From assembly GCA_963840885.1 (NCBI GenBank), contig CAWJAN010000001.1, positions 115,051 to 179,050 on the forward strand: a DNA stretch of 64,000 nucleotides. The letters are read 5' to 3'. Shown here piece after piece: positions 13,946 through 56,889 of this stretch. The notes below the pieces were generated by a model, which was not told the origin of the DNA, did not search any database, and saw only the letters and a program-made list of their open reading frames with translations. The stretch is from an uncultured bacterium (GTDB taxonomy: Bacteria > Patescibacteriota > Minisyncoccia > Phycocordibacterales > GWA1-40-21). Position 1 is the stretch's first letter, and every line of letters begins with the position of its first letter. A program made the position numbers and the translations under genes.

Positions 13946-13950
13946 AAAAA

Positions 13951-14292: not shown

Positions 14293-14312
14293 ATTTTTAT
14301 TTTTAATAAATT

Positions 14313-18993: not shown

Positions 18994-19050
18994 CTTGTGA
19001 TAATTGTTTTCATTTTAATTTTATGGTTCTCCTGGATTTTTAGATTTGCC

Positions 19051-20385: not shown

Positions 20386-20410
20386 ATCCTTAAAAATCTG
20401 CCGCGAAAAA

Positions 20411-20824: not shown

Positions 20825-20867
20825 CTTTAATTTTAATATTTTTATTACTTTCTATTATATTAGCTTT

Positions 20868-23800: not shown

Positions 23801-26800
23801 CGGTATTGAATTGCGCGCTTGATGTCTGGAACCAATCAGGATTTCCTGTAGGAGATGATGAGGCATATGTGAATGTCCAAGTCCCTGATGACCAGCTCCC
23901 ATAAGTGCCTCCTCCGTCATTAGAAGCTCTTGCGCGGACATAATATGTTTCCCCATCCGTTGTAGACAGAGCAGGCGAAAGGCTTGCGGCTGAAAGATTA
24001 TAAGCGGTGCCTGAAGTATATGTTCCTGAAAAAGTTTCCCTGTGAGCCGTTCCGGTGAAATCAGATACGTCATTGAGTTCAATCTGAAAACTGTTGGAGC
24101 TTATGGAACTTGTGGCTGATACTCTGAAAATCGGCGTGGTCGTAGCCTGCCTTATATTATTGAAAGCGATTTGGTTTGAACCTCCATCATCATTATAAAA
24201 CACAGGGGCATTAGGAGCTGTCACAGTCTTATAAGCAACTGTCCAGTCATTAAGAGTGGCTCCGGATGTGATGGAAGCTTTCAAGCAAATGGTTGAATAA
24301 GTCGAGGTGCTGAGCCCGGAAAGATTTATTGGGCTGCTTGCAAAACCCGTGCTGTTTCCCGAGAGATCGCCGTCTGGAATTATTGTGCTGCAGCTAGCTC
24401 CATAATAGACCTGCATGGATACGGTTCCTGAAGTTGCGGTTTTTGACCATGATGCAGAATCCCAGCTCGTCGCGCCTGGTACGAAACTATAATTTATCGG
24501 GGATGACATAATGGAACCAGAACTGGAAGGATTAATTAAAACGGTTGCAGCATCGGGAGAGGTTGCTGAACCAGAAAGGGTCCAAGTATTTGATATGCCG
24601 GTCGATGTATCGGTCGTTAAAGCATTTCGTGAAGCTGCATAAGTTGCGTGATACTGCGGCCTTGCTGTTTGGTCTTCAGTCCAGCCTCCGCTGACGCTGC
24701 TGAGTGTCAGACCGCCGGCTGAGCCATCATCTGTTTCCATGCTCGACAAAGCCAAGGTGCCGATGACGCTTGGAGTAACCGTCGGTGAAGTTTGCGTGCC
24801 AGTATTTGAACTGCTTTGGTTTATGGGAGTAACCGAATTTTCACCTTGAATTTCATACAATACGCCAGACTGCCATTCAACTGTCCCGCTAATCGGAAAG
24901 GTATATCCTGTCCCGTCTCCTCCTTGAACTATTTTCCACCAAACAGTAAGCTGTGCGGTGCCGTTTGTTTGATCTTGAATCTTAGTCCAGGTTCCATCCG
25001 GAGCCGATGTGGTTCTGTCCAGCGAATAATCGGAATTTCCGACAAACGCGACCAAAAGATCTCCGACAGCCGGCTGCAAACTTAATGTAAACGGAACTGA
25101 TGTCCCTGTTACAGCTGGTTCCCATTTTGTACTCTGGACTATTCCTAATGTCTGGCTGCTTGATACTCCGACTGAACCAGAACCTGTTGTTGTTGCAGAA
25201 GATAAAGTTCCTGTATTAAACTGCGCATCCGTAGTCTGAAACCATGCCGGACTGCCGCTTGATTCATAAGTGAAAGATTGCGTCGATGTCGACCAGTTGG
25301 AATAATTTGATCCGTCTGCCGATGCCCTTGCCCTTACATAATATGTGATTCCGTTTGTCGTAGGCAAGCTTGGCGACAAGCTTGACGCCAATAAATTGTA
25401 TACCGTGCCTGAAGCGTATGTGCTTGAAAAAGTCTGGGAATATGTAGTTCCGCTGAAATTAGTGGTGGTGCTGAGCTGTAATTGGAAATTCGTGAAATTC
25501 GTAGGGCTTGTAGCCGAAACCCTGAACAAAGGAGTGGTCGTGCTTTGTATTATATTGTTGAATGCGATTTGGTTTGTTCCGTCACTGTTTGAAAAAGTCG
25601 GGGTGTTTGGTTTTATAATGGCAGAAGAATAAGTTACCGTCCAATCGTTAAGAGTGGCTCCGGATGTGATGGAAGCTTTCAAGCAAATGGTTGAATAAGT
25701 CGAGGTGCTGAGCCCGGAAAGATTTATTGGGCTGCTTGCAAAACCCGTGCTGTTTCCCGAGAGATCGCCGTCTGGAATTATTGTGCTGCAGCTAGCTCCA
25801 TAATAGACTTGCATGGATACGGTTCCTGAAGTTTCTGTTTCCGACCATGTAGCCTGGCTCCATATTACCGAGCCGGGAACGAAACTGAAATTTATCGGGG
25901 ATGACATTATCGTTCCGGTTGAAGATGTGGAATATGGATATTTGACTATTACGATTCCTGAGCCTCCGGCGCCTCCGGTGTCGCTTGATCCGGAACCATT
26001 TTGTCCAGCTCCTCCTCCTCCGCCTCCTGTATTAACAGTTCCCGCTGTTCCGCTTTGGCCGGTATTGCCTCCGGCTCCTCCTCCGCCAGCTCCTCCTGCT
26101 CCGGCATTTCCAGTTCCTGTGCCCAAATGCTGAAGTCCTCCGCCTCCGCCTCCGCCATAAGTAACAGAAGAACCTGAAATAGAAGTTGTGTAGCCGTCTC
26201 CGCCTTTTCCTGCCTGAGTGGCAACTCCATTAGCACCAACTTGCGTTGCTCCTCCTCCGCCTCCGGCGGCAAAAGTTCCGTTCGTTCCGTCTCCGCTGTC
26301 ATAGCCGTTTCCTCCGGAATTTCCTTGCCCTGCCGTTCCGGCTTTACCGGAATCACCGGCATTGTGATATCCTCCTCCGCCGGAACCGCCGGCAGTCGCA
26401 GTTGAACCTTGTTGTCCGCCTCTGCCTCCGCCTATAGCCGTCAATGTTCCAAAAACAGAATTGCTGCCGGCAGTATTTGCCGCTCCTCCGCCTCCTATAG
26501 TAACCGTGTATGACTGCGGAGTTACCGCGTAAGAAGAATTATAAATGACTCCTCCGGCTCCTCCTCCGCCTCCGGTTCTGTCGGGATCATTTCCTCCTCC
26601 GCCTCCGCCGGCAACAACCAGCGCCTCGATATTTCCTGAACCGGATGTGACTTGGAATGTTCCGCTTGAAGTAAAAGAATGATAGCGATAGCCGCCTGTT
26701 GTGGTTATCGTGCCTCCGGTAGCGCTCATGAGAGGAAGCAAAATCACCTGATCGGAGCTTGCGACTGTTCCGGTTAATGTATCCGTATTGAATTGGGCAT

Positions 26801-28052: not shown

Positions 28053-28093
28053 TTTTATGCTTAAATTATATCAATGGCGATTGATATTGTCTA

Positions 28094-31090
28094 TTATTTG
28101 CTTATAAATAACGGCGACAGGCTTGATCCGACTGCATTTATAACGTTCACATATCCGTCAAATACCCTATTGACCGGAGAAACCAGCCATATAACTGAAT
28201 CACCAAAAGCTATAACATGCTGTTCTAATTTAAGCCCGACATCGCCTCCTCCGCCTCCGTTTGAAGGCGGAGTGGTTGTTGAAACTGTCGTCGTTGCGGT
28301 TGATGAAGACTGCTCTGTGCCGCTTCCGCCGTTTTCGTTTCCTCCGGACTTGCCTGAATTTGCCGCCGCTGAAGACTCGACATTTTTTCCTCCCCTGTTT
28401 TTGACAACCGGCGCGACAACGGACACTTCCGGCAAATTGCCGTATACAAAATTTGACGAGTCGCCGGCGTTCGTTACCCTGAAGCAATAGGCCGATGATG
28501 TATCGATATTTGATATGGAATATATAGAATATTCAAGCTCTGTAAACTGAGAAGTTGTCAGGCTCATTGCCGTCGTCTGGTCTTCCTGCGTCTTTACATA
28601 TCCAGGAACAAAAGTTTTTCCGGCTGGATCAGTAATTTTGGAAGAATTTGTCGTAGAAGTATTATTACCTACCTTTGATATGCTCATGGCCCATGGCCCC
28701 ATCGTATTGTCGAAAGCCGGCACCGGATACCAGCTCGTGCATGAGTCATCGCTTGAAGCGTATTCAAGGCGGTATTGATAATTTGAAGCTATGCCCGTGC
28801 CGGTATTTGAAACCTGAATCCTGAGTCTCAATTGATCTCCCATATTTACTCCGGAAGTCAGCGGCGCATTTACCGAAGCATAGCTTTCGCTGTTTTGATT
28901 CGGATCATTCGTCCTCCAGCCGTAATTGTCTGTCTGAGTTATCTGCGCGGTTCCGCTAGCATTTCGCCAGCTTACAGACCAGTCATTTAATGATGGAGAT
29001 GTTGTGCCTGTGCCGTTTAGAGTAGCTTTTAGGCATATACTATTATATGTGGTGGTGCTTAATCCTGATAAATCTAGGGGGCTCGTTGATGAAGAAAATC
29101 CTGCGCTGTTTCCGGAAAGCGCGCTGTCCGGAATAATCGTATCGCAAGGAGCCGTGCTTGAATAATAGACTTGGACTGAAGTAGATCCGTATGTCTCATC
29201 TGCCGACCAAGATGCCTGATTCCAAGAAATCATTCCTGGAACGTAATTGAAATTAACCGGCGGAGAGATGATCGAGCCTGTATCGGTGGCTGCGGAAATC
29301 GGCGCTGAACCTCCGCCTACATTTACGCCGAAAGCGCCGAAGCTCGTTCCGGTTGCCGCGGAAATTGAGCTCATGAGCCCTATCCATCCTGCGCTTGTGG
29401 TCGCGCTTGAAGTAGATTGAATATCCCAAGATGAAGGCTCATTGTCAGCCGCAAGCCAAGTCTTATATTTAAAATAATTTCCTGAAAAACTTGCGCGCGC
29501 TTTATACCATCTATTAGCCGAAGGGCTGAATGAAGAACTGGCATTTACAGCAGAACTACCTGAATCATAATATCCTATATCTTCCGTGCTTGATGAAGAA
29601 TCATATCCTCCTATAACTCCCGTTGCGCTTACGTAACTCGTTCCCGAAGCCCTTGCCACGGCAAAAGCGTCGGTATTTGTCGCCGGGACTTTATAAATAA
29701 AAAATATATTCGCGTCTCCGGAAACGCCGTCTAGGACATTCCATGATAAAAGATTGAATGGGCTTGTCGTCGATTCTGAACGCAGAACCTTTCCTCCCGC
29801 TGCTGTCGCATCGTCCCGTATAAACCAGTCATTCGCGCTTGCAGACCACTTTTCCGTCCAATCACTTGGCTTTGAGCCTGTGGCATACCCTGAAAAATCA
29901 GTAAAATATATCTTGCTTGTATCCAAAAGGTCTGCTGTTCCGGAACTTGTCGTTTCAATGCTGCCGGACAAAGATCCGGTATTGAATTGCGGTCCCGTAG
30001 TCTCGAACCAGTCCGGATTGCCTCCTGTTTTATAAGTGAAAGATTGCGTAGCTGCAGACCAGGAAGAATAATTCGTTCCGCCGTCTGATGAAGCGCGCGC
30101 TCGGACATAGTAAGTTGCGCCATCTGTGGCAGGCAAGCTTGGCGACAATGCGGCTGCCAATAAATTGTATTTTGTTCCCGAGGCATACGCTCCTGAAAAA
30201 GTCTCCGTATACGATGTGCTGCTGAAATCGGATACGGAATTCAATTCCAATTGGAAAGCATCAAAAGAAGACGAAGAGACGGCAGATACGATAAAATCAG
30301 GAGTGGTAGTGCTCTCTCGTATATTGTTGAAAGAAATTTGGTTTGTTCCGTCGCTGTCCGAAAAGATCGGAGCGGACGGAGGGATTGCCAATGGCTTGAT
30401 AGCTATAGTAAATGCTTCCGGGCTGTCTATCGTTCCGGAAGTCGTAAAAGTCCCCGGATCATCAGAAGAGGCGGTCAATGAACGATTGGCAGTTGAAACT
30501 CGCGAGCGAGAAGTCGCTCCAGATCCGTTCTCCGCTATCGTAATCAAATTGGAATAATTTGCAGGAGCTGCGGTTACTGAAGAGTTAGAAATGCGGTTTG
30601 TCATGCCGGCAATCCAAAGAGTATCTGCAGTTCCCCAAGACGGAGAAAGAGCCGGCGGATCATTTGTTGTGGATGTGGCTATTTCTGGTGTTCCGGTCCA
30701 TCCGCTTATGCGGTATCCGATGGCGGCAACACGGATATTTGTGGATGTTATGGCAACTGTCGCTCCTTCCGATCCGCTTGCCGTTTTATACCATATATAT
30801 GTATGGCCAAGAGTTGTTGAGTCTATGGAACTAAGCAAAGACCATCCGCTAGGCGTTGATGCGGTTGCAGTTGATCCTCCCCTAAAAACAAGCATGAGCA
30901 GATCGCCAGCCTGGATGCCGGAAGGCAAGGTGACATTGTTCGATGTCGCGGCGCTACTGTTTTGATATGTGCTCGTAGCTGCAATTGCAGGATAACCTGC
31001 TGCTAATGCATTGGCGTGAATATTGAATATTCCCAAAATAATAAAAACAAATATTGATTTTAAAAATAGCTTTTCCAAGTGATTGTTCAT
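28094..31090 (-). CDS. large secreted surface protein (998 aa), paralogous to the 2394-aa protein
   Basis: Signal peptide MNNHLEKLFLKSIFVFIILGIFNIHANA. It shares the FN3-like AQFNTG module, the YFTDFSGYATGS.PSDWT jelly-roll-like domain, and a C-terminal S/T/G tail ending GGGGGDVGL plus a hydrophobic segment, all with the 2394-aa protein. Confidence 0.75.
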   Translation of the reverse strand: MNNHLEKLFLKSIFVFIILGIFNIHANALAAGYPAIAATSTYQNSSAATSNNVTLPSGIQAGDLLMLVFRGGSTATASTPSGWSLLSSIDSTTLGHTYIWYKTASGSEGATVAITSTNIRVAAIGYRISGWTGTPEIATSTTNDPPALSPSWGTADTLWIAGMTNRISNSSVTAAPANYSNLITIAENGSGATSRSRVSTANRSLTASSDDPGTFTTSGTIDSPEAFTIAIKPLAIPPSAPIFSDSDGTNQISFNNIRESTTTPDFIVSAVSSSSFDAFQLELNSVSDFSSTSYTETFSGAYASGTKYNLLAAALSPSLPATDGATYYVRARASSDGGTNYSSWSAATQSFTYKTGGNPDWFETTGPQFNTGSLSGSIETTSSGTADLLDTSKIYFTDFSGYATGSKPSDWTEKWSASANDWFIRDDATAAGGKVLRSESTTSPFNLLSWNVLDGVSGDANIFFIYKVPATNTDAFAVARASGTSYVSATGVIGGYDSSSSTEDIGYYDSGSSAVNASSSFSPSANRWYKARASFSGNYFKYKTWLAADNEPSSWDIQSTSSATTSAGWIGLMSSISAATGTSFGAFGVNVGGGSAPISAATDTGSIISPPVNFNYVPGMISWNQASWSADETYGSTSVQVYYSSTAPCDTIIPDSALSGNSAGFSSSTSPLDLSGLSTTTYNSICLKATLNGTGTTSPSLNDWSVSWRNASGTAQITQTDNYGWRTNDPNQNSESYASVNAPLTSGVNMGDQLRLRIQVSNTGTGIASNYQYRLEYASSDDSCTSWYPVPAFDNTMGPWAMSISKVGNNTSTTNSSKITDPAGKTFVPGYVKTQEDQTTAMSLTTSQFTELEYSIYSISNIDTSSAYCFRVTNAGDSSNFVYGNLPEVSVVAPVVKNRGGKNVESSAAANSGKSGGNENGGSGTEQSSSTATTTVSTTTPPSNGGGGGDVGLKLEQHVIAFGDSVIWLVSPVNRVFDGYVNVINAVGSSLSPLFISK

Positions 31091-31117: not shown

Positions 31118-34100
31118 TTATTGGCTGGAGCTTGTAGCTTCTGTACTCGTGCTGTCTGTAGTGCCGGTTGTCGTCGCCTGTTCCGTTTGAACCGGTTCGG
31201 TAACATCCACTTCTCTCGTTGCTTTTGCATTATTACCTGCAGCATCTGTTGCGGAATACGTTATCGCATATGTTCCCGCTGTGCTCGTATCTACAGTTCC
31301 GGAAGTTGTAACGGAAACGTTTCCGTCGACATCATCTGTCGCTGTCGCGCCGGCATCCGCATATGTGTCGCCCACGGTAAGGTTTACAGGATTTGAACCG
31401 TTCAGTGTTATGACCGGAGCCGTGGTGTCGGCTGGCGCTGGCGGAGTGGTTGTAGCTTCCGTATCGGTAGTCGTCGATGTCGTATCTGTTGTTGAGGCTG
31501 TATCGTCAGCCGAAGTCGTATCCGTGCTCGTTGAAGTGGTGTCGGTGCTTGTCGATGTTGTATCGGTCGAAGTTGATGTCGTGGATGATGAAGTTTCCGA
31601 GGTATCGGACGACTGATCGCTTCCCTGTCCCATTGCCGGAGACGGCGATGAAGGAATTATGGACATAAAATCTTTTGCGCCTTTCACAGCAAATGCCGTC
31701 CAGCTGAACTCGATATCTTCGGGCGCAGGATTATTTATCATTATCGTGAATCCATTCGTTGATTTATCGGCCACCAAATATTTGATCTCATTGTTGAATA
31801 TTGCGACAGAAACGGCGGCAGCATCAACTGAGCTGTCAAGAGAAATCGTGGCGTTCACTACAGGATCGACAAGATACGGCTTGTCGAATGTCACATCCAC
31901 GCTGGTAGCGCCTTTATATATGGTGGCAAATCCTGCTGTATCGGAATTGAAGTAAGGAGTGCCGAAGAAAATGGTATCCGAATTGAACGAAATTGCGTCA
32001 CTCAAAGAATTTACATGGTCTATCGTCAAGCCGTTTGCCGTTATCTGCGGCGTTATTATTTCCACTCCGGCGGCAAGCCTGCCGGTGAACAGTTCCGAGG
32101 AATTTTCTGCCGTTGATGTTCCGTTGAGAAGCTTGTCCAAAACTTGTTTTGCAAAATCGTCAGGATATATTCCATTGTCTATGTTTATTCCGGCAAATTC
32201 GCTTATGCTCTGTCCATTGTAATATCCTTGTTCAACATAAACCATTACCGTTGTCGATGTCGACGACGGAGACCATGAGCCGAGGGCTTTACCTATTACG
32301 AATCCCGCTCCGGTCGCTTTCATCGCTTTTCCAGGATCGTTTGAAGTCGTAAGATAATCTCCGGGATTTATTTCTTCCGAACTAGAGGAAATTTTTACAG
32401 GAACGCGTCCGTTAAGGGCTATCGGCATAGGATTGTCTTCCTTCTTTATATTATATCCGGCTGATGTGAAATTGCCGTGGTTGTCGGAAACTATTCCTAC
32501 AGTATTTTTCTGGTAAGGGCTGTTTGATTTTACGAGCTCTGTGATCTGGCCGAGAACATTATTGTAGTCTACAGACGTATCGGTTGCTGTGCCGTATGTG
32601 TTTACCAATTGCGAGCCGGTAACGACTATGTCGCCGTATTCGGTTCCTGTGGCGACCGGATAATTTTCAGCGTAGTCGGCGGATGGCGCTGAACTGCAAT
32701 CTCCGAGCGTATATATGCTGCCGGCCGAAGGAGATGTTCCTGTGGCCAATGTCGAACATACCGCCGTTGAAACGGTTGTAGTTGCAAGGCCGATGCTTAC
32801 TATTCCATTGCTGTTTACTGTAAATAATGACGTGTCGTTTTTCTTAAGATCTATGAAGTTTCCTGTAAACGATCCTCCGCCTTTTCCGAAATTCATCGTA
32901 AGCCCTTCTCCGGAGAATGCGGAGGTTTCCTGATAAAAGCTTGCCACTGACGTAGCTGTCGTCATGGTATTGGTGTAAAGCCTCAAGACATCTCCTTGCG
33001 TAGTTCCGTCATTTTCTGCATACAGCGCAGCAGGTAAAAGAACTCCTCCAGCATTTCCGGCAGTGATTGCCTGCAAGCCGAATGTCGCGCCGGTGGTTCT
33101 GATGCCGGTATTCACGCCGGAAGTGTTTGAACCTGCGTTCGAGACTATTTCCATTCCGCGCGTAGTATTTGCAAGAGTGGTGTTATCAACCATTCTCATG
33201 ATTTCTCCTACGACCGTATTTGCATTCGTGGTCGGCTGAACATTTACAACGAAACGGTTACCGACTTGAACGCCTCCGGCAGTAGGATTTACATTATAAT
33301 TTCCATTGATACCGGCGATGGCATTTGTAGCGCCGTCAGCCGAAACCGAACCGTCTATCAAAAGTTTCGCCAGAGAAAAAGATGTCGTTGTACCTATCAT
33401 CGCCTGGCCGCTTTGCGATATTGTGAAAAGATTTGCGCCTGTAGATGAGGAAACTGCGAACGGATTAATACCTGATGCTCCTTGTACCAAGAAACTTGAT
33501 GTTGAAGTCGTGGCGTTCACGCCAGCAACTGTTCCGTTATCGAAAAGGACGCCGGAACTTAGAGTTGAAGTGGATGTCCAGCGCGCCACCTTTCCATTAG
33601 TGCCTCCTGAAAGAATTGGTGAGGTTGTTGAAATAACATTTCCGCTTCCATCAACTGCAAGGAATGAGCCGACAAGTCCGTTGCCGAGTTTAAGATTTGA
33701 GATTGTTGTTGTTGCAAGTGTCGTCGTTCCGTTAATGGTAACTGAACCTGTGAATGTTGCTCCTGTAAGAGCTGCGAAGGTCGATGAAGCGTAAGTATAT
33801 GTCGGATAATTCGCGATTGTCGCATACGTTGATGTTCCATATGCGTATGTGGAGAATGTTGAAGATGCGTATGTGTATGTCGGATAATTCGTAAGGGTGC
33901 TAACGGTATTTGTTATGTATCCAGACGGATTAGATGCGAAATAATATGTGGAAGAAGCATAGCCAAATGATGGGAAGGTCGAGGATGCATACGTATATGT
34001 AGGAGTGTTTGCAAGAAGCGCATATGTGGAAGTTCCATAAGCATAAGTGACAAATGTTGATGATGCGTAAGTGAATGATGGGAAAGTTGAGGATGCGTAT

Positions 34101-37100
34101 GTATTCGTAACATATCCGGACAAAAGATTTGCAGTCGAAGTTGCAATGACATTTCCCAAAGAATCAGCCGCGAGAAGAGTTGAAGCTATTCCGTTTCCTA
34201 GAGAAAGCTGGCTGATGCTTGTTGTAGCGAGATTAGAACTTCCTAAAACGCTTAATATGGATGAAAGATTAGCTGATCCTGAAATGGTTGTTGTGGAAAA
34301 AGTAGAAGTGCCGGAAACAGTAAGCTGATTTGAACCAAGATTTACATTGGAGCTTGCTCCCGTATAGGGAACATAATTGGCAAGCGCAGCAGAAGTTGCA
34401 TATGTTGATGAGCCGTAAGCATATGTCACGAAAGTTGATGAAGCGTAAGTGAATGTCGGATATGTGGCTGTGGCGTTTGCGATTGTCAGGTATGTGGAAG
34501 CGGCGGAAGTGGTGGAAAGGTATCCTCCGAGTGTTGTTGCCAATGTTCCCGTGGAGACGTAATTGATGGCAGCCTGAAGCTGGGAAAGATATGTCGAAGA
34601 TCCGTAAGTGAATGTCGGATATGTGGCTGTGGCGTTTGCGATTGTCAGGTATGTGGAAGCGGCGGAAGTGGTGGAAAGATACGGTGCGAGAGCGGAAGCC
34701 GTGATGAATCCTGAAGTAGAGTTGTCAGCGGTGGAAAGGTCTTGTCCGGAGATGTTTGAGATGTATCCAGACGGATTCGAAGCAAGGTAGAAGTCGGATG
34801 ATGAAGCGCTTGGAATATACGGAAGCGATGTCGAAGCGGAAAGAGGAAGGTATGTTGCTGCTGCAGATGTTGTTGAAAGGTATCCTCCGAGTGTTGTTGC
34901 CAATGTTCCCGTGGAGACGTAATCGATGGCAGCCTGAAGCTGGGAAAGATATGTCGAAGATCCGTAAGTGAATGTCGGATATGTGGCTGTGGCGTTTGCG
35001 ATTGTCAGGTATGTGGAAGCGGCGGAAGTGGTGGAAAGATACGGTGCGAGAGCGGAAGCCGTGATGAATCCTGAAGTAGAGTTGTCAGCGGTGGAAAGGT
35101 CTTGTCCGGAGATGTTTGAGATGTATCCAGACGGATTCGAAGCAAGGTAGAAGTCGGATGATGAAGCGCTTGGAATATACGGAAGCGATGTCGAAGCGGA
35201 AAGAGGAAGGTATGTTGCTGCTGCAGATGTTGTTGAAAGGTATCCTCCGAGTGTTGTTGCCAATGTTCCCGTGGAGACGTAATCGATGGCAGCCTGAAGC
35301 TGGGAAAGATATGTCGAAGATCCGTAAGTGAATGTCGGATATGTGGCTGTGGCGTTTGCGATTGTCAGGTATGTGGAAGCTGCGGAAGTGGTGGAAAGAT
35401 ACGGTGCGAGAGCGGAAGCCGTGATGAATCCTGAAGTAGAGTTGTCAGCGGTGGAAAGGTCTTGTCCGGAGATGTTTGAGATGTATCCAGACGGATTCGA
35501 AGCAAGGTAGAAGTCGGATGATGAAGCGCTTGGAATATACGGAAGCGATGTCGAAGCGGAAAGAGGAAGGTATGTTGCTGCTGCAGATGTTGTTGAAAGG
35601 TATCCTCCGAGTGTTGTTGCCAATGTTCCCGTGGAGACGTAATCGATGGCAGCCTGAAGCTGGGAAAGATATGTCGAAGATCCGTAAGTGAATGTCGGAT
35701 ATGTGGCTGTGGCGTTTGCGATTGTCAGGTATGTGGAAGCTGCGGAAGTGGTGGAAAGATACGGTGCGAGAGCGGAAGCCGTGATGAATCCTGAAGTAGA
35801 GTTGTCAGCGGTGGAAAGGTCTTGTCCGGAGATGTTTGAGATGTATCCAGACGGATTCGAAGCAAGGTAGAAGTCGGATGATGAAGCGCTTGGAATATAC
35901 GGAAGCGATGTCGAAGCGGAAAGAGGAAGGTATGTTGCTGCTGCAGATGTTGTTGAAAGGTATCCTCCGAGTGTTGTTGCCAATGTTCCCGTGGAGACGT
36001 AATTGATGGCAGCCTGAAGCTGGGAAAGATATGTCGAAGATCCGTAAGTGAATGTCGGATATGTGGCTGTGGCGTTTGCGATTGTCAGGTATGTTGCTGC
36101 TGCAGATGTTGTTGAAAGGTATCCTCCGAGAGAAGAGATGGTTGCGAATGTCGTCGAAGCGTAAGTGAATGTCGGATATGTGGCTGTGGCGTTTGCGATT
36201 GTCAGGTATGTGGAAGCGGCGGAAGTGGTGGAAAGGTATCCTCCGAGAGAAGAGATGGTTGCGAATGTCGTCGAAGCGTAAGTGAATGTCGGATATGTGG
36301 CTGTGGCGTTTGCGATTGTCAGGTATGTGGAAGCGGCGGAAGTGGTGGAAAGTTTTGCATCAAGTGCGGCTTGCAAATCGGTTTGATCAGAAAGTAAACC
36401 GGTGATGGCTCCCCATGCGACGGTTGCTGACCCGCTTGAAGCAAAAGCCCAGGCATATCCGTTTGGTGCAGTGCTTGATGCCTGAAGAAATTGTCCGGCT
36501 GTTCCCGTTGCGATAGATGTAAGTCCTGAAGAAGAATTGAATATTGCGATTTGTCCTGCTGTTCCCGTCCCCGTTATCGGATTCGTAAGCGTAGTCTGAT
36601 ATGTCGAAGATCCGTAATCATATGTGACAAAAGTTGATGATGCGTATGTATATGGAACATATGTCGAAGCTGCCGTTGCCGAAGTAAGATACGGTGCGAG
36701 AGCTGATGAATCAATGTATCCAGACGGATTCGAAGCAAGGTAGAAGTCGGATGATGAAGCGCTTGGAATATACGGAAGCGATGTCGAAGCGGAAAGAGGA
36801 AGGTATGTTGCTGCTGCAGATGTTGTTGAAAGGTATCCTCCGAGAGAAGAGATGGTTGCGAATGTCGTCGAAGCGTAAGTGAATGTCGGATATGTGGCTG
36901 TGGCGTTTGCGATTGTCAGGTATGTGGAAGCTGCGGAAGTGGTGGAAAGATACGGTGCGAGAGCGGAAGCCGTGATGAATCCTGAAGTAGAGTTGTCAGC
37001 GGTGGAAAGGTCTTGTCCGGAGATGTTTGAGATGTATCCAGACGGATTCGAAGCAAGGTAGAAGTCGGATGATGAAGCGCTTGGAATATACGGAAGCGAT

Positions 37101-40100
37101 GTCGAAGCGGAAAGAGGAAGGTATGTTGCTGCTGCAGATGTTGTTGAAAGGTATCCTCCGAGTGTTGTTGCCAATGTTCCCGTGGAGACGTAATCGATGG
37201 CAGCCTGAAGCTGGGAAAGATATGTCGAAGATCCGTAAGTGAATGTCGGATATGTGGCTGTGGCGTTTGCGATTGTCAGGTATGTGGAAGCTGCAGATGT
37301 TGTTGAAAGGTATCCTCCGAGAGAAGAGATGGTTGCGAATGTCGTCGAAGCGTAAGTGAATGTCGGATATGTGGCTGTGGCGTTTGCGATTGTCAGGTAT
37401 GTGGAAGCGGCGGAAGTGGTGGAAAGATACGGTGCGAGAGCGGAAGCCGTGATGAATCCTGAAGTAGAGTTGTCAGCGGTGGAAAGGTCTTGTCCGGAGA
37501 TGTTTGAGATGTATCCAGACGGATTCGAAGCAAGGTAGAAGTCGGATGATGAAGCGCTTGGAATATACGGAAGCGATGTCGAAGCGGAAAGAGGAAGGTA
37601 TGTTGCTGCTGCAGATGTTGTTGAAAGGTATCCTCCGAGTGTTGTTGCCAATGTTCCCGTGGAGACGTAATCGATGGCAGCCTGAAGCTGGGAAAGATAT
37701 GTCGAAGATCCGTAAGTGAATGTCGGATATGTGGCTGTGGCGTTTGCGATTGTCAGGTATGTTGCTGCTGCAGATGTTGTTGAAAGGTATCCTCCGAGAG
37801 AAGAGATGGTTGCGAATGTCGTCGAAGCGTAAGTGAATGTCGGATATGTGGCTGTGGCGTTTGCGATTGTCAGGTATGTGGAAGCGGCGGAAGTGGTGGA
37901 AAGTTTTGCATCAAGTGCGGCTTGCAAATCGGTTTGATCAGAAAGTAAACCGGTGATGGCTCCCCATGCGACGGTTGCTGACCCGCTTGAAGCAAAAGCC
38001 CAGGCATATCCGTTTGGTGCAGTGCTTGATGCCTGAAGAAATTGTCCGGCTGTTCCCGTTGCGATAGATGTAAGTCCTGAAGAAGAATTGAATATTGCGA
38101 TTTGTCCTGCTGTTCCCGTCCCCGTTATCGGATTCGTAAGCGTAGTCTGATATGTCGAAGATCCGTAATCATATGTGACAAAAGTTGATGATGCGTATGT
38201 ATATGGAACATATGTCGAAGCTGCCGTTGCTGAAGTAAGATACGGTGCGAGCGCTGATGAATCAATGTATCCAGACGGATTCGAAGCAAGGTAGAAGTCG
38301 GATGATGAAGCGCTTGGAATATACGGAAGCGATGTCGAAGCGGAAAGAGGAAGGTATGTTGCTGCTGCAGATGTTGTTGAAAGGTATCCTCCGAGTGTTG
38401 TTGCCAATGTTCCCGTGGAGACGTAATCGATGGCAGCCTGAAGCTGGGAAAGATATGTCGAAGATCCGTAAGTGAATGTCGGATATGTGGCTGTGGCGTT
38501 TGCGATTGTCAGGTATGTGGAAGCTGCAGATGTGGTTGAAAGGTATCCTCCGAGAGAAGAGATGGTTGCGAATGTCGTCGAAGCGTAAGTGAATGTCGGA
38601 TATGTGGCTGTGGCGTTTGCGATTGTCAGGTATGTGGAAGCTGCGGAAGTGGTGGAAAGATACGGTGCGAGAGCGGAAGCCGTGATGAATCCTGAAGTAG
38701 AGTTGTCAGCGGTGGAAAGGTCTTGTCCGGAGATGTTTGAGATGTATCCAGACGGATTCGAAGCAAGGTAGAAGTCGGATGATGAAGCGCTTGGAATATA
38801 CGGAAGCGATGTCGAAGCGGAAAGAGGAAGGTATGTTGCTGCTGCAGATGTTGTTGAAAGGTATCCTCCGAGTGTTGTTGCCAATGTTCCCGTGGAGACG
38901 TAATCGATGGCAGCCTGAAGCTGGGAAAGATATGTCGAAGATCCGTAAGTGAATGTCGGATATGTGGCTGTGGCGTTTGCGATTGTCAGGTATGTTGCTG
39001 CTGCAGATGTTGTTGAAAGGTATCCTCCGAGTGTTGTTGCCAATGTTCCCGTGGAGACGTAATCGATGGCAGCCTGAAGCTGGGAAAGATATGTCGAAGA
39101 TCCGTAAGTGAATGTCGGATATGTGGCTGTGGCGTTTGCGATTGTCAGGTATGTGGAAGCTGCGGAAGTGGTGGAAAGTTTTGCATCAAGTGCGGCTTGC
39201 AAATCGGTTTGATTGGAAAGCGTACCAGTGATTGCACCCCACACTCCGTTTCCTCCACTACTGCTTGCAAGCACCCAATCATATCCAGTAGGAGAAGTTG
39301 AAGATGCTCTCAAAAACATTCCGTCTGTGGAAGTGCCTATGCTCGACAATGTTCCAGTTGCTGTCCAGTAAGAAAGTTGTCCTGCGACTCCGCTGCCGGA
39401 AATTTTATTATTAAAATTTGTCCAATCTGATGATGAAAGATATCCGTCATTTGTCGATGAGGCAATACCAAGCTTTGTTCTTATTGATGAAGAAGATTCA
39501 TCTCCGGTATTTATTCCTGTTGAAGTTCCTGTAAAATTTGAAGCGGAAATATTTCCGGAAAAGTTTGCGTCCGCGGCGCTTAAAAGTCCATTGCTGTCTA
39601 TGGAAAAAATATTTGTTCCTGTCGAATCTTGAATTTGAAAAATATTTGCAACCTGTCCCAGAAAAGCCCTGACGGTAAGCGCGGTGGAATCCGTGGATGT
39701 AGAAAGTATACTCACCACGGAATTATCTATTGGGGTTGTAGTTCCGAAAGATGATTGCCCTGCTCCGCTTACGGCTCCAGCCACCTGAGAAAATGCTGCG
39801 GAAGTTATTTTTTGTCTTGGGCTAAGAGTTTGGAATGTAACATTGTCGGAAGAAACTTCAATCTGCAGATATATGGAATTATTCGTATTGAAATTGTAAT
39901 CCAAAATATCAGGGTAGCCGGCTACAGTATCTCCGATATTTACATTAAAAACTCCCTGGCGGACTTGCGAAGAAAAAGATGTTGGCGCCGATGCTGGCCA
40001 GAGTTTTGTGCCAGAACCGACGGTAGAATTATCCCAAATTGAAAATTTAAAATAATAATTTGTTCCGGTTCCTCCCAAAAGATTTCCGCTTGAATCCGCA

Positions 40101-40231
40101 AGCCTGCCTTGATAAGAAAGGATGGTAGGAACTCCATTTTGTGCAAAAACAAAATTTTCGCTTAATAACGGAGAAAAAGCGAAACAGAGGACAAACAATA
40201 AAATTAGTGATTTTTTATAGGTTTTTACCAT
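31118..40231 (-). CDS. giant repeat-rich secreted protein (about 3038 aa from the signal-peptide ATG) with fiber-like Tyr/Ser/Thr repeats and a C-terminal Ig-like (DUF5011-type) domain
   Basis: One uninterrupted 9.1-kb ORF. The signal peptide MVKTYKKSLILLFVLCFAFSPLLS starts at the ATG at 40229-40231. The central region of about 4.8 kb consists of near-identical tandem repeats with unit LSTTSAA(S/A)TYLTIANATATYPTFTY(G/A)SSTYLSQLQAAIDYVSTGTLATTLGGY. The C-terminus has a TSTSTDTT S/T linker. It ends in a segment PVITLNGSNPVNLTVGDTYADAGATATDDVDGNVSV...GTYAITYSATDAAGN, typical of bacterial Ig-like surface domains. Confidence 0.75.
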   Translation of the reverse strand: MVKTYKKSLILLFVLCFAFSPLLSENFVFAQNGVPTILSYQGRLADSSGNLLGGTGTNYYFKFSIWDNSTVGSGTKLWPASAPTSFSSQVRQGVFNVNIGDTVAGYPDILDYNFNTNNSIYLQIEVSSDNVTFQTLSPRQKITSAAFSQVAGAVSGAGQSSFGTTTPIDNSVVSILSTSTDSTALTVRAFLGQVANIFQIQDSTGTNIFSIDSNGLLSAADANFSGNISASNFTGTSTGINTGDESSSSIRTKLGIASSTNDGYLSSSDWTNFNNKISGSGVAGQLSYWTATGTLSSIGTSTDGMFLRASSTSPTGYDWVLASSSGGNGVWGAITGTLSNQTDLQAALDAKLSTTSAASTYLTIANATATYPTFTYGSSTYLSQLQAAIDYVSTGTLATTLGGYLSTTSAAATYLTIANATATYPTFTYGSSTYLSQLQAAIDYVSTGTLATTLGGYLSTTSAAATYLPLSASTSLPYIPSASSSDFYLASNPSGYISNISGQDLSTADNSTSGFITASALAPYLSTTSAASTYLTIANATATYPTFTYASTTFATISSLGGYLSTTSAASTYLTIANATATYPTFTYGSSTYLSQLQAAIDYVSTGTLATTLGGYLSTTSAAATYLPLSASTSLPYIPSASSSDFYLASNPSGYIDSSALAPYLTSATAASTYVPYTYASSTFVTYDYGSSTYQTTLTNPITGTGTAGQIAIFNSSSGLTSIATGTAGQFLQASSTAPNGYAWAFASSGSATVAWGAITGLLSDQTDLQAALDAKLSTTSAASTYLTIANATATYPTFTYASTTFATISSLGGYLSTTSAAATYLTIANATATYPTFTYGSSTYLSQLQAAIDYVSTGTLATTLGGYLSTTSAAATYLPLSASTSLPYIPSASSSDFYLASNPSGYISNISGQDLSTADNSTSGFITASALAPYLSTTSAASTYLTIANATATYPTFTYASTTFATISSLGGYLSTTSAASTYLTIANATATYPTFTYGSSTYLSQLQAAIDYVSTGTLATTLGGYLSTTSAAATYLPLSASTSLPYIPSASSSDFYLASNPSGYISNISGQDLSTADNSTSGFITASALAPYLSTTSAASTYLTIANATATYPTFTYASTTFATISSLGGYLSTTSAAATYLPLSASTSLPYIPSASSSDFYLASNPSGYIDSSALAPYLTSATAASTYVPYTYASSTFVTYDYGSSTYQTTLTNPITGTGTAGQIAIFNSSSGLTSIATGTAGQFLQASSTAPNGYAWAFASSGSATVAWGAITGLLSDQTDLQAALDAKLSTTSAASTYLTIANATATYPTFTYASTTFATISSLGGYLSTTSAASTYLTIANATATYPTFTYASTTFATISSLGGYLSTTSAAATYLTIANATATYPTFTYGSSTYLSQLQAAINYVSTGTLATTLGGYLSTTSAAATYLPLSASTSLPYIPSASSSDFYLASNPSGYISNISGQDLSTADNSTSGFITASALAPYLSTTSAASTYLTIANATATYPTFTYGSSTYLSQLQAAIDYVSTGTLATTLGGYLSTTSAAATYLPLSASTSLPYIPSASSSDFYLASNPSGYISNISGQDLSTADNSTSGFITASALAPYLSTTSAASTYLTIANATATYPTFTYGSSTYLSQLQAAIDYVSTGTLATTLGGYLSTTSAAATYLPLSASTSLPYIPSASSSDFYLASNPSGYISNISGQDLSTADNSTSGFITASALAPYLSTTSAASTYLTIANATATYPTFTYGSSTYLSQLQAAIDYVSTGTLATTLGGYLSTTSAAATYLPLSASTSLPYIPSASSSDFYLASNPSGYISNISGQDLSTADNSTSGFITASALAPYLSTTSAASTYLTIANATATYPTFTYGSSTYLSQLQAAINYVSTGTLATTLGGYLSTTSAASTYLTIANATATYPTFTYASSTFVTYAYGSSTYATSAALANYVPYTGASSNVNLGSNQLTVSGTSTFSTTTISGSANLSSILSVLGSSNLATTSISQLSLGNGIASTLLAADSLGNVIATSTANLLSGYVTNTYASSTFPSFTYASSTFVTYAYGTSTYALLANTPTYTYASSTFPSFGYASSTYYFASNPSGYITNTVSTLTNYPTYTYASSTFSTYAYGTSTYATIANYPTYTYASSTFAALTGATFTGSVTINGTTTLATTTISNLKLGNGLVGSFLAVDGSGNVISTTSPILSGGTNGKVARWTSTSTLSSGVLFDNGTVAGVNATTSTSSFLVQGASGINPFAVSSSTGANLFTISQSGQAMIGTTTSFSLAKLLIDGSVSADGATNAIAGINGNYNVNPTAGGVQVGNRFVVNVQPTTNANTVVGEIMRMVDNTTLANTTRGMEIVSNAGSNTSGVNTGIRTTGATFGLQAITAGNAGGVLLPAALYAENDGTTQGDVLRLYTNTMTTATSVASFYQETSAFSGEGLTMNFGKGGGSFTGNFIDLKKNDTSLFTVNSNGIVSIGLATTTVSTAVCSTLATGTSPSAGSIYTLGDCSSAPSADYAENYPVATGTEYGDIVVTGSQLVNTYGTATDTSVDYNNVLGQITELVKSNSPYQKNTVGIVSDNHGNFTSAGYNIKKEDNPMPIALNGRVPVKISSSSEEINPGDYLTTSNDPGKAMKATGAGFVIGKALGSWSPSSTSTTVMVYVEQGYYNGQSISEFAGINIDNGIYPDDFAKQVLDKLLNGTSTAENSSELFTGRLAAGVEIITPQITANGLTIDHVNSLSDAISFNSDTIFFGTPYFNSDTAGFATIYKGATSVDVTFDKPYLVDPVVNATISLDSSVDAAAVSVAIFNNEIKYLVADKSTNGFTIMINNPAPEDIEFSWTAFAVKGAKDFMSIIPSSPSPAMGQGSDQSSDTSETSSSTTSTSTDTTSTSTDTTSTSTDTTSADDTASTTDTTSTTTDTEATTTPPAPADTTAPVITLNGSNPVNLTVGDTYADAGATATDDVDGNVSVTTSGTVDTSTAGTYAITYSATDAAGNNAKATREVDVTEPVQTEQATTTGTTDSTSTEATSSSQ
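34400..39250. repeat. nested near-perfect tandem repeat array inside the giant gene (117-nt subunit, 360-nt unit, about 1.5-kb higher-order unit)
   Basis: Antisense ORFs at 34608, 34968, 35328 and 35688 are exactly 360 nt apart, and their translated proteins are identical. The 360-nt unit recurs at 34561, 34921, 35281, 35641 and 36001. A 117-nt subunit dominates 36060-36360. Blocks starting at about 36351 and 37902 are identical over several hundred bp (offset 1551 nt). A third divergent copy starts near 39177. Confidence 0.9.
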
Positions 40232-40363
40232 ACAAATAATGCCTGTACACTCAAATAAATGCCTTATTTGATCAACTGGCATTATTATAACACTGTATGC
40301 ATAGAATATACAAATATATGTTGATAAAAATACGTTTAAAAATATGGATATTTTATTCCATTG

Positions 40364-40410
40364 ACAAAAAAACCGGTTCTTAGCTTAAGAAATCCGGTTT
40401 TTTATTTTTT
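40364..40410 (-). terminator. intrinsic terminator downstream of gyrA
   Basis: Hairpin aaaaaaccgg-ttcttagcttaagaaat-ccggtttttt. Confidence 0.7.
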
Positions 40411-46037: not shown

Positions 46038-46670
46038 ATGCAGAACGCAAAAAATTTTATAAAGGAAGTTGTTGGCATAGCTATTTTATCTTTCATAATA
46101 GTTCTTCCCATAAGAGTATTTATCGCTCAGCCATTTGTCGTATCCGGAGAATCGATGAGCCAGACTTTCCAAGACGGCAATTATCTTATAGTAAATGAGT
46201 TAGGCTATGATTTCCATAAGCCTGCCCGCGGAGACGTAATAGTGTTCAAAGTTCCTCCTGCCGGCCTTGCGCTTCAGAATGTCGATATAACAAAAACCGT
46301 TTACTATATAAAAAGAGTTATAGGTCTTCCTGGAGAAACCGTTGAAATAGACGGTGATGAAGTAAAGATTTACAATTCTGCAAATCCTGGCGGATTTGTG
46401 CTGGACGAACCTTACATATATATAGACAAAAGCGTAACATCCGCATTCTCGCAAATACATGAAAAGACTACTCTCGGACCGAACGAATATTTCGTCATGG
46501 GCGACAACAGGCATAACAGCTCTGATTCCAGATTATGGGGAATATTGCCTGGAGATAACATAAAAGGACAGGTTTTAGCCCGTCTATTCCCATTGAATGA
46601 AATTTCTATCTCGCCTGGAGAATTCAGCTTCGGTTCATCAACGCCGATTTCAACTTCAACATCAAAATAA
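46038..46670 (+). CDS. lepB: signal peptidase I
   Basis: N-terminal TM; catalytic Ser box GESMSQTF; and YIKRVIGLPGE...GDNRHNSSDSRLWG boxes. Confidence 0.9.
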   Translation: MQNAKNFIKEVVGIAILSFIIVLPIRVFIAQPFVVSGESMSQTFQDGNYLIVNELGYDFHKPARGDVIVFKVPPAGLALQNVDITKTVYYIKRVIGLPGETVEIDGDEVKIYNSANPGGFVLDEPYIYIDKSVTSAFSQIHEKTTLGPNEYFVMGDNRHNSSDSRLWGILPGDNIKGQVLARLFPLNEISISPGEFSFGSSTPISTSTSK

Positions 46671-56079: not shown

Positions 56080-56106
56080 TTTTATAGATTACTTACAAAT
56101 ATTTTA

Positions 56107-56871: not shown

Positions 56872-56889
56872 TGCTGTTGAGCGGATTTT

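Follow-up and report, generated by a model that had tools for sequence, protein, structure and literature searches.

The window, meaning the whole stretch of 64,000 nucleotides that was analysed, belongs to a Patescibacteria chromosome and contains an unusually long reading frame that adjoins gyrA and is surrounded by gyrA, rpsA, pth, hisS, lepB, ftsA/Z, topA, parB and murJ (Table 1). The true start of the protein is probably Met18 (ATG at 40229–40231), as judged from the sequence, since a TATAAT-like box overlaps the upstream ATG and the signal-peptide-like stretch starts at Met18; the product would then have 3,037 residues. Conservation of the N-terminal region reaches approximately residue 230, with 40–80% identity among relatives, and a Foldseek search with its β-sandwich domain returned generic Ig-like matches only. 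Inspection of the sequence and Pfam searches found no LPXTG motif, SLH domain or C-terminal transmembrane segment that could serve as a cell-wall anchor. Neither the protein as a whole nor its predicted auto-chaperone domain has a direct match in Pfam, NCBIfam or PHROG, and the only direct profile matches within the protein are those of the repeat unit to phrog_25379 and of the C-terminal end to PF16403.

Table 1. Features of the giant gene and one further gene of the window (positions are those of the window)
Feature	Position	Strand	Residues	Remarks
Whole ORF	31118–40282	minus		3,054 aa; 9,165 nt, intact reading frame
Predicted Sec signal peptide	40142–40231	minus	18–47	MVKTYKKSLILLFVLCFAFSPLLSENFVFA/QN, cut before QN; by eye from sequence
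N-terminal β-sandwich (Ig/FN3-like)	39791–40138	minus	~49–164	family-conserved; AF2 pLDDT >90
E0, old diverged copy of distal module E	39179–39403	minus	294–368	β-hairpins and helix 'SNQTDLQAALDAK'
Near-perfect nested repeat region	34445–39178	minus	369–1946	51 module copies, six types
AB array	38829–39154	minus		period 159 nt, 2.1 copies, 100% matches (Tandem Repeats Finder)
Module E copy 1	37904–38263	minus	674–793	includes tail-fibre motif WGAITGLLSDQTDLQAALDAK
AbABCD array	36801–37903	minus		period 477 nt, 2.3 copies, 98% matches (Tandem Repeats Finder)
Module E copy 2	36353–36712	minus	1191–1310	1,551 nt from copy 1
Ab array	36043–36352	minus		period 117 nt, 2.6 copies, 95% matches (Tandem Repeats Finder)
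ABCD array	34445–36118	minus		period 360 nt, 4.65 copies (4 full and partial), 99% matches
Degenerate (old) stalk repeats	33443–34444	minus	1947–2280	kindred type (YASSTF / PSFTY / GTSTY ...)
'Head' region	32681–33442	minus	2281–2534	most conserved part of family; many invariant G/N/D/R/T positions
Predicted phi29-gp12-type intramolecular chaperone (Peptidase_G2-like)	32213–32680	minus	2535–2690	starts with motif A/DYAENY (bar between A and D)
Small α/β domain	31676–31948	minus	~2779–2869	helical linker ahead; AF2 pLDDT 75–95; family-conserved
Low-complexity linker	31412–31645	minus	~2880–2957	rich in Ser/Thr/Asp
Bacterial surface Ig-like domain (PF16403 / DUF5011)	31202–31411	minus	2958–3027	Pfam E 2.2e-21; PDB 2kpn match
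Signal peptidase I gene	46038–46670			

Anatomy of the repeat region

The repeat region accounts for about half of the 3,054 residues. As assembled, its 4,734 nt are tiled without gaps by copies of six in-frame modules, in agreement with the sequence-only reading, which had described near-perfect nested repeats within a 9.1-kb gene. The modules are A (25 residues, 17 copies), B (28 residues, ten copies), b (14 residues, six copies), C (40 residues, nine copies), D (27 residues, seven copies) and E (120 residues, two copies), arranged in the order ABABCD AbABC E AbABCD AbABCD AbC E AbAbABCD ABCD ABCD ABCD ABA. Every module length is a multiple of 3 nt. Unique sequence amounts to 762 nt, 13 nucleotide columns vary among copies and exact internal repeats are up to 622 nt long; listed by module, variable nucleotides number eight in A, two in E, one each in B and C and none in b or D. 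Such near-identity cannot be due to chance.

Tandem Repeats Finder identified four arrays in the region, with periods of 159, 477, 117 and 360 nt; its call for the ABCD array was 34515–36094 (period 360, 4.4 copies, 99% matches). The 360-nt unit proposed earlier holds for the copies starting at 34561, 34921, 35281 and 35641, which are at least 99.4% identical, but the supposed fifth copy at 36001 is merely partial. The 117-nt unit, previously taken as a subunit of the 360-nt unit, is actually a separate A+b array, with module A common to both. The blocks at 36351 and 37902, thought to be identical parts of a 1.5-kb higher-order repeat, do recur 1,551 nt apart, but they represent the two E modules of 360 nt, which differ at two positions, both synonymous. 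Identity at this offset spans only 36231–36844 and is then lost owing to unlike intervening modules (AbC versus AbABC). The divergent copy noticed near 39177 is E0, which has 59% protein and 62% DNA identity to E and is modeled by AF2 as strands and a helix with a pLDDT of 55–72.

An assembly artefact, in which the repeat family is real and the number and order of modules and the 9.1-kb length result from a wrong path through the repeat graph or from collapse or expansion of a long-read consensus, is in our judgement quite improbable. Exact repeats of up to 622 nt and arrays that are 95–100% identical are beyond the resolution of short reads, and 54 of 80 related genes, from public and mostly short-read metagenomes, leave their contig soon past the N-terminal domain (less than 3 kb remains downstream in 63 of the 80 loci, compared with less than 3 kb upstream in 34). 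Frameshifts are evident in two related fragments (P0121 and P0122), and neither an independent copy of the gene nor any sequence of the same species was found in any collection searched. Against an artefact, the reading frame is unbroken throughout, with all module boundaries in frame, and an artefact of a short-read graph would normally be a collapsed repeat and not a set of four distinct in-frame arrays. The copies are also distinct sequences, since both E copies and two B copies carry private substitutions; in addition, module A has two chimeric leader alleles, A3 and A5, each present in a single copy, whose sequences resemble recombination junctions. The contig is no shorter than 64 kb and carries intact housekeeping genes to either side of the gene, which suggests an assembly from accurate long reads, able to span the 4.7-kb array.

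Relatives of the protein

The protein belongs to a family found at 61 GTDB loci, with record titles of Patescibacteria type at 58 (including Parcubacteria/Paceibacterota, Nomurabacteria, Uhrbacteria, Minisyncoccia and Saccharibacteria), of Gammaproteobacteria at two and of Peregrinibacteria at one. The family is unannotated and has not been described before; the kind of protein is itself familiar. Its members have a signal peptide and β-sandwich domain at the N-terminus and a conserved module at the C-terminus, with a hypervariable part between them, and secreted cohesin- or dockerin-like genes often recur downstream of them.

The closest relative found, L140, shares 72–76% identity over the N-terminal 360 residues and contains A-, b-, B-, C- and D-like modules that are mutually diverged, with no detectable internal DNA repeat, which supports the earlier proposal of a very recent expansion. 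Among 180 family members and hits, the fraction of residues in exactly repeated 10-mers is 56% in the present protein, 47% in the next highest and at most 26% in the others. The module types, including their aromatic positions, are kept across species (L140, P0030, P0057 and P0123), and degenerate repeats comparable to those that follow the near-perfect region are present in P0030, P0055, P0057, P0112 and P0123.

Phage-type elements of the stalk and C-terminal module

The repeat unit matches phrog_25379, annotated as 'tail protein' (E 3.4e-6), as does E0 (E 1e-4). The motif WGxITGxLSxQTDLQxAL is shared with 76 IMG/VR loci, mostly at 60–90% identity over 20–35 residues; a tblastn search of GenBank phages with the repeats and the low-complexity filter on gave no match. 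Six of ten IMG/VR ORFs with the motif were scanned against PHROG: two match several tail-fibre families and have C-termini of the S74 type, SD(Y/I)R(L/I)K, and two others match one tail family each. Tail fibres bearing the longer form WGxITGxLSxQTDLQxAL(D/N)xK (phrog_25379 and relatives) have this motif in common with the present protein, and several of them end in a Peptidase_S74 intramolecular chaperone. Repeats of the YLTxxxAxxTY type and the ASNPSGYISNISGQDLS block, as in P0123, P0127, P0131 and P0145, are a further likeness. Unlike the present protein, the viral motif proteins are 300–1,000 residues long, carry one to four diverged motif copies and lack a signal peptide, and none has long near-identical DNA repeats.

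Residues 2535–2690 are predicted by AF2 with a pLDDT of ~90 and resemble the intramolecular chaperone of gp12, the pre-neck appendage (tailspike) of Bacillus phage phi29 (Peptidase_G2, PF11962; PDB 3GQ7 / 3GQH). In the alignment the motif A/DYAENY falls on S691/DFAEYF of gp12 (the bar precedes Asp in both), followed by the blocks GDIV, (I/V)G(I/V)(I/V)S and L(N/L)G(R/Q)(V/I)(P/A)V(K/R)(I/V); among 45 family members, conservation at the D, A and E positions of this motif is 90% or higher. The homolog P0112 aligns across the domain (E 4e-11) and itself passes the PF11962 profile (32.8 bits, cutoff 25). As the domain has no direct profile match, it is assigned to the auto-chaperones by its fold, its motif and transitive homology. 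Residue 691 is the last of mature gp12* (PMC6542822), and the C-terminal domain of gp12 is required for trimerisation and is removed by cleavage after folding (PMC3357383). Both proteins have an elongated region upstream that is likely to need trimerisation, which is a β-helix in gp12 and a repeat stalk with a 'head' (AF2 pLDDT mostly <50) in the present protein. The latter is cellular, has a signal peptide and is ~3.6 times longer, and its auto-chaperone-like domain is internal, whereas that of gp12 is C-terminal. Since cleavage would discard the ~360 residues beyond the domain, including the conserved α/β and Ig-like domains, it may act as a non-cleaved trimerisation knob; gp12-like cleavage and ATP dependence apply to the present protein at most by analogy.

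These features, together with a neighbouring 2,394-residue protein that matches phrog_2295, could point to a prophage remnant or a phage-derived, tailocin-like particle with the gene as a true phage tail fibre rather than a cellular surface protein. We regard this as very improbable, because no capsid, portal, terminase, tail-tube, baseplate or integrase gene was found within the window, whose flanks are core chromosomal, and because an N-terminal signal peptide, as present here, is absent from virion tail fibres. Moreover, the signal peptide and N-terminal domain are kept across the almost exclusively Patescibacteria family, and its frequent cohesin- or dockerin-like neighbours also argue against a phage origin of this kind.

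Structure prediction, proposed at the outset for a few repeat units, gave no secondary structure and a pLDDT of ~30 for residues 373–680 as an AF2 monomer, and no solved structure resembles the repeats (spurious matches to antibody light chains only). Thr, Ser and Ala make up 53% of the 1,578-residue region and a second Ser/Thr-rich linker lies close to the C-terminus, which would suit a flexible, probably O-glycosylated, mucin-like spacer of a monomeric surface protein, with near-identity of the repeats simply providing length. We consider such a disordered tether unlikely. The regular pattern of Tyr (9%), Leu (10%) and Phe (3%) in the region and its near lack of Gln and of charge (no Glu or Arg and two Lys) are atypical of disordered linkers, and its module types and aromatic positions are conserved across species. 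Furthermore, its motifs recur in tail-fibre proteins of phages, a class of obligate trimers on which AF2 monomer runs typically fail, and a putative trimerising domain follows downstream.

A putative giant surface fibre

We therefore favor, as the probable explanation, a giant secreted surface fibre of an ultra-small Patescibacteria (Paceibacteria-type) bacterium that has the layout of a phage tailspike or tail fibre and whose stalk was recently expanded by recombination. The signal peptide, the phrog_25379 match, the tail-fibre motifs in IMG/VR and the phi29-gp12-type auto-chaperone in the C-terminal module all accord with the initial suggestion of fibre or adhesin stalk repeats. The short repeats rich in Thr, Ser, Ala, Leu and Tyr that bear the tail-protein motif extend over ~1,900 residues. 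A homotrimer is the best reading of the fibre; as the stalk has no predicted monomer structure, a trimeric β-structured form is assumed by analogy. The auto-chaperone domain would drive homotrimerisation and folding of the fibre upstream and may then cleave itself between Ala2535 and Asp2536, as gp12 does between Ser691 and Asp692. The N-terminal domain would keep the fibre on the cell, the 'head' region would be the distal, target-binding end and the repeats would serve as a spacer and determine how far the fibre reaches.

Trimeric autotransporter adhesins (YadA, BadA and Hia) are likewise very long fibres with a repetitive modular stalk, a presumed adhesive head and, towards the C-terminus, a trimerisation element, and the present protein is probably trimeric as well. 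It differs from them in having no YadA-type β-barrel anchor and no head, neck or stalk Pfam domain of this class, with trimerisation predicted to proceed via a phage-type auto-chaperone. Patescibacteria are not known to have an outer membrane.

Periscope proteins (SasG, Aap, Rib, Sgo0707 and others; PMC9704523) similarly derive a stalk from highly identical tandem DNA repeats, and the present protein is likely to be at the surface too. In the periscope class each chain is monomeric and consists of repeat domains that fold individually, and multimeric stalks are explicitly excluded (PMC9704523), whereas the modules here are motifs of 14–40 residues without a monomeric fold in AF2 and are accompanied by a putative trimerisation domain. 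The class is also defined by variation in repeat number between strains, and the present gene is known from one strain. As in periscope proteins, the stalk is expected to grow or shrink by homologous recombination. The near-identical 4.7-kb part would be of very recent origin: older stalk modules, already present, would have been multiplied in several rounds by unequal homologous recombination or replication slippage, to give the four tandem arrays and the 1,551-nt higher-order duplication. Given the exact repeats that persist in the gene, we predict that the length of the stalk should keep changing within the population by the same process.

Anatomy of the repeat array

The repeats sit within a single minus-strand ORF, the fibre gene, whose product we call the fibre protein. 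Tandem Repeats Finder located four arrays between 34.5 and 39.2 kb, and no equally strong tandem array was found by this program elsewhere in the 64-kb window. Parsing of the protein showed that six in-frame modules tile the repeat region with zero residues left over, in the order ABABCD-AbABC-E-AbABCD-AbABCD-AbC-E-AbAbABCD-ABCD-ABCD-ABCD-ABA. A single copy of every module totals 762 nt and the region is thus about six-fold redundant. Variation over all module copies is restricted to 13 nucleotide columns: eight in module A, where they are confined to the first 24 nt, two in E, one each in B and C, and none in b and D. The longest exact repeat in the array region is 622 nt. The A-leader variants are of two types, mostly tracking which module precedes; two further variants, A3 and A5 (one copy each), are chimeric and look like recombination junctions. 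Several rounds of unequal recombination or slippage, one after another, are indicated by the four arrays with their different periods, by a 1,551-nt duplication and by the chimeric alleles at junctions.

Features of the fibre gene, its neighbours and the window
Feature	Window position	Residues	Size	Copies	Remarks
Fibre gene	31118–40282 (minus)		3,054 aa		
Tiled repeat region	34445–39178	369–1946	4,734 nt		modules A–E
Array, period 360 nt				4.4	99% matches
Array, period 117 nt				2.6	95% matches
Array, period 477 nt				2.3	98% matches
Array, period 159 nt				2.1	100% matches
Module A			25 aa	17	
Module B			28 aa	10	
Module b			14 aa	6	
Module C			40 aa	9	
Module D			27 aa	7	
Module E	36353, 37904		120 aa	2	
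E0 segment		294–368			older, E-like
Head		2281–2534			start of C-terminal module
Candidate auto-chaperone domain		2535–2690			
Ig-like domain		2958–3027			PF16403/DUF5011
Downstream cluster	16640–31090 (minus)				six genes
Downstream gene 1	(minus)		998 aa		no family
Downstream gene 2	(minus)		2,394 aa		Gly_rich_2, DUF2341, phrog_2295
Downstream gene 3	(minus)		137 aa		
Downstream gene 4	(minus)		444 aa		Big_6; borderline Dockerin_1 (22.7 bits, cutoff 22.9)
Downstream gene 5	(minus)		294 aa		Cohesin, weak but full-length (E 0.004); TM segment at C-terminus
Downstream gene 6	(minus)		489 aa		weak Cohesin, Big_13, PPC
Pilin genes	13082–14397 (minus)			3	T4SS_pilin/TrbC-VirB2 (PF18895, PF04956)
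Low-GC patch	56–60 kb (region 55474–59046)				GC 0.32–0.37
DUF4145 protein	55474–56079				in low-GC patch
ORF without family	57892–59046		384 aa		in low-GC patch

The sequence-only reading had placed these repeats essentially correctly, but several details differ. The 360-nt unit, given as at least five copies, is present in 4.65 copies; the 117-nt unit (A+b), taken to be its subunit, is instead a sister array; and the 1.5-kb higher-order blocks are really the two E modules lying 1,551 nt apart. The divergent copy that it noted near 39177 is borne out as the E0 segment, with 59% protein and 62% DNA identity.

The 1,578-residue repeat region is composed of 19% Thr, 18% Ser, 16% Ala, 10% Leu and 9% Tyr; its charged residues are 41 Asp and two Lys, with no Glu or Arg. 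Plus-strand GC skew over window 34001–40000 is very strong (+0.24 to +0.40, versus about ±0.1 elsewhere), as a result of the bias of the coding strand, which is Thr/Ser/Ala-rich, towards ACN, TCN and GCN codons, and the GC content there is raised (0.46–0.49 versus ∼0.41). The repeat unit, over its residues 84–165, matches the PHROG family phrog_25379 ('tail protein') with an E value of 3.4e-6, as does the N-terminal E0 segment (E 1.1e-4), with the match limited to a motif region of ∼80 residues; the full-length fibre protein gave no PHROG match at E ≤ 0.01. The WGAITGLLSDQTDLQAALDAK element of the repeat unit is also present in 76 IMG/VR loci. We read ten of the ORFs containing this element and scanned six of the ten against PHROGs: two (L062 and L021), each with an S74-type SD(Y/I)R(L/I)K chaperone at its end, matched several tail-fibre families, and another two matched one tail family each. 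The blocks ASNPSGYISNISGQDLS...ITASAL and YLTxxxAxxTY are common to the repeats and to database proteins carrying collagen, PTR, fibritin-C or BclA-like domains. A check of the repeats for a β-helix or fibre fold (AF2, monomer) produced a pLDDT of ∼30 and no secondary structure, and no solved structure resembling them was found. No GenBank phage was matched in a tblastn search with the repeats, for which the low-complexity filter is the probable reason. From the tail-fibre motifs and the putative trimerizing chaperone downstream, we infer that the stalk would form a trimeric β-structured shaft.

Domain architecture and the candidate auto-chaperone

BLAST mapping to homologs delineates conserved ends at residues ∼20–230 and ∼2280–2875 with a variable middle between them. 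Both ends match one common homolog set, including P0002, P0008, P0009 and P0024; their joint presence, which marks membership of the family, was found in the fibre protein. From Met18 (ATG at 40231) the N-terminal sequence resembles a Sec signal peptide (MVKTYKK-hydrophobic-VFA↓QN), and Met18 appears a more plausible start than the first ATG at 40282, which is overlapped by a TATAAT-like box. A hairpin with a T-run at ∼40370–40410 resembles a gyrA terminator; a promoter and terminator scan upstream of the fibre gene scored no better than shuffles.

The signal peptide is followed by a β-sandwich predicted with a pLDDT of >90 (AF2), for which Foldseek returns generic Ig/FN3-like matches only. 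Directly after the near-identical modules come ∼330 residues of degenerate repeats of the same kind. The head, which opens the C-terminal module, is the most conserved part of the family, with many invariant residues, and AF2 produced no fold for it. The adjoining segment is a confident β domain (AF2 pLDDT ∼90), followed by a helical linker and a small α/β domain, and the protein ends with a Ser/Thr-rich linker and the Ig-like domain (76.1 bits against a gathering cutoff of 27; E 2.2e-21). The latter was the sole match of the full protein to Pfam, NCBIfam and PHROG, and scans of segments at E ≤ 10 added only phrog_25379. Sequence searches of the PDB with the single protein, the repeat unit and the family profile returned, besides the Ig-like domain, nothing but spurious matches to antibody light chains.

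The predicted fold of the β domain fits the C-terminal fragment of gp12, the tailspike of Bacillus phage phi29, which contains an auto-chaperone (Pfam PF11962, Peptidase_G2). Its Foldseek matches, which are weak, are homotrimeric phage decoration proteins, H-type lectins and the C-termini of tailspikes and pyocin fibres. PF11962 itself does not match the fibre protein even at E ≤ 10; the homolog P0112, which aligns to the domain with an E value of 4e-11, matches PF11962 with 32.8 bits (cutoff 25), and the putative profile match of the fibre protein is thus transitive only. Since no Pfam threshold is reached, the domain is a divergent relative and not a profile-level member. The maturation motif is present: A2535↓D2536-Y-A-E-N-Y aligns on gp12 S691↓D692-F-A-E-Y-F (gp12 sequence from EU771092; cleavage site based on EU771092, PMC6542822 and PMC3357383), residue 691 being the last of mature gp12* (PMC6542822). 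The D, A and E of the motif are each at least 90% conserved among 45 family members, and the blocks GDIV, IGVIS and LxGxxxVxI are also common to gp12 and the domain. A phage-tailspike ancestry of the family appears clear. In gp12 the chaperone domain promotes trimerization, cleaves itself off once folding is complete and is C-terminal, whereas in the fibre protein conserved domains follow it; self-cleavage is uncertain here because the domain is not terminal.

The head region (residues ∼2290–2500) also occurs in P0032–P0037, P0039 and P0043. Some head-bearing proteins have a fused Peptidase_S74 intramolecular chaperone, or right-handed β-helix Pfam domains, in place of the gp12-type domain, an indication that heads and chaperones are shuffled as modules in Patescibacteria.

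Genomic context, relatives and integrity of the array

The window is a segment of bacterial chromosome, encoding dprA, topA, relA/spoT, parB, miaA, murJ, gyrA, S1, pth, hisS, signal peptidase I, ftsA, ftsZ, trxB and tsaD, with gyrA directly upstream of the fibre gene and three small pilin genes adjacent to one another. No phage structural genes were found in the 64 kb, so that the gene lies outside the viral or prophage setting of a phage tail fibre, and, given the housekeeping genes around it, we reject a prophage origin. A diversity-generating retroelement, raised by the literature, was also considered, and the subset of window ORFs scanned with Pfam contains no reverse-transcriptase domain. 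The low-GC patch is possibly an islet that was acquired horizontally or is related to defence. The six genes of the downstream cluster are tightly spaced and all have signal-like N-termini; genes 5 and 6, which encode the cohesin-like proteins, lie at 18109–18993 and 16640–18109. Homologs of the last four, in conserved order, lie downstream of family genes in loci L077, L107 and L119, with partial sets in six more of 39 GTDB loci and in metagenome loci L153, L163, L179 and L217; the cluster possibly encodes a conserved, cohesin/dockerin-like scaffold at the cell surface.

Homologs of the non-repeat C-terminal 1,108 residues are Patescibacteria MAG proteins (labelled Paceibacterota, Nomurabacteria or Parcubacteria), the best with 51–53% identity. 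A GTDB scan (one genome per species, 12 query sequences) yielded 61 family loci with ORFs of up to >4,000 residues, 58 of them with Patescibacteria-type titles, two Gammaproteobacteria and one Peregrinibacteria; metagenomes contributed 80 loci. Synteny with gyrA is absent in all related loci.

The nearest relative found, L140, is 72–76% identical across the N-terminal 360 residues and then has A-, b-, B-, C- and D-like modules, which makes the module types older than the split. Its module copies differ mutually, and self-comparison detected no internal DNA repeat. Degenerate YASSTF/PSFTY-type stalks are also present in P0030, P0055, P0057 and P0112. Among 180 family proteins and ORFs, exactly repeated 10-mers take up the largest fraction of residues in the fibre protein (56%), followed by P0057 (47%) and all others (≤26%). 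The near-identity of the modules therefore reflects recent, lineage-specific amplification or homogenization, which supports the very recent expansion, one of three options put forward from the sequence alone.

The assembly could be materially wrong in copy number or module order, which we consider improbable. Exact repeats of up to 622 nt are beyond short-read resolution, and public assemblies break at related genes: in 54 of 80 loci (L140–L219) the contig ends before the ORF does, and less than 3 kb of sequence lies downstream in 63 of the 80 and upstream in 34. Against such an error, the ORF is unbroken across 9.1 kb with every module junction in frame, individual module copies carry their own substitutions, and the contig is long and otherwise normal. 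Contigs bearing the family N-terminal domain tend to stop shortly after it (L140–L219), in varied stalk sequences and not only in YxSSTF-type repeats; none of the 54 ends specifically in the latter. The variable middle of family genes thus seems to break metagenome assemblies systematically, and in public MAGs its members are, as a consequence, probably both truncated and too few. In L138 (JGI 3300045909, a 10-kb contig) and P0122 the related genes are strings of short, frameshifted ORFs, and P0121 has ∼190 residues in frame followed by out-of-frame text, which suggests that these homologous repeat genes come from error-prone long-read assemblies.

Exact look-ups of the fibre protein and the neighbouring GyrA found nothing on record in public collections, and an exact 32-mer of module D had no match in metagenome contigs; thus, the species is not represented elsewhere in public collections, and none of the collections searched yielded a sequence of the same species.

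Proposed mechanism and comparison with known systems

We conclude that the repeat expansion is real and striking, and that it belongs to an uncharacterized but widespread family of putative Patescibacteria surface fibres. From the domain order, homologies, repeat anatomy and comparative recency, we infer a mechanism in which the protein would be exported via Sec and the auto-chaperone domain would nucleate a homotrimer, zipping up head and stalk. The chaperone may then cleave itself off between A2535 and D2536 or may equally stay attached, given the conserved domains that follow it. The N-terminal domain would anchor the fibre on the cell with the head distal, stalk length would set its reach, and the near-identical modules would destabilize that length via RecA-type unequal exchange.

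Periscope proteins resemble the fibre protein in their surface-protein tandem repeats of high DNA identity (95–100% here, with a predicted signal peptide and a presumed surface location). The class consists of monomeric single chains whose individually folding repeat domains (about 50–165 residues) form a rod (PMC9704523), whereas the modules here are of 14–40 residues (120 for E), show no monomer fold (AF2 pLDDT ∼30) and are accompanied by a putative trimerizing domain. Repeat number varying between close strains defines the class, and the fibre gene is known here from one genome; the protein would work like a periscope but falls outside the class definition (PMC9704523). Trimeric autotransporter adhesins are similar in form, but their YadA-type β-barrel anchor and head, neck and stalk domains have no Pfam matches in the fibre protein.

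Our tentative proposal, which we regard as possible rather than probable, is that Patescibacteria took over the phage tailspike/tail-fibre plan, including a gp12-type auto-chaperone, for chromosomal, Sec-exported trimeric host-attachment fibres, that in this lineage recombination between the nested, nearly identical stalk modules tunes the reach of the fibre at population level, as a trimeric counterpart of the monomeric periscope proteins, and that the fibre is perhaps mounted on a cohesin/dockerin-like scaffold encoded by the conserved cluster. Identical repeats in a surface stalk are already well known; what is new in detail is the family itself, its nested grammar of modules and the presence of a gp12-type chaperone in an exported cellular protein.

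Patescibacteria that have been brought into culture live attached to other microbial cells; the molecules by which they find and hold hosts are, to our knowledge, largely unknown beyond type IV pili. A widespread, wholly unannotated family now gains a concrete architecture of signal peptide, base domain, variable stalk and conserved head, together with a putative phage-type trimerizing auto-chaperone and its predicted site of cleavage. Repeats this close to identity suggest that stalk length can shift fast, which could matter for reaching through host envelopes or for escape from recognition.
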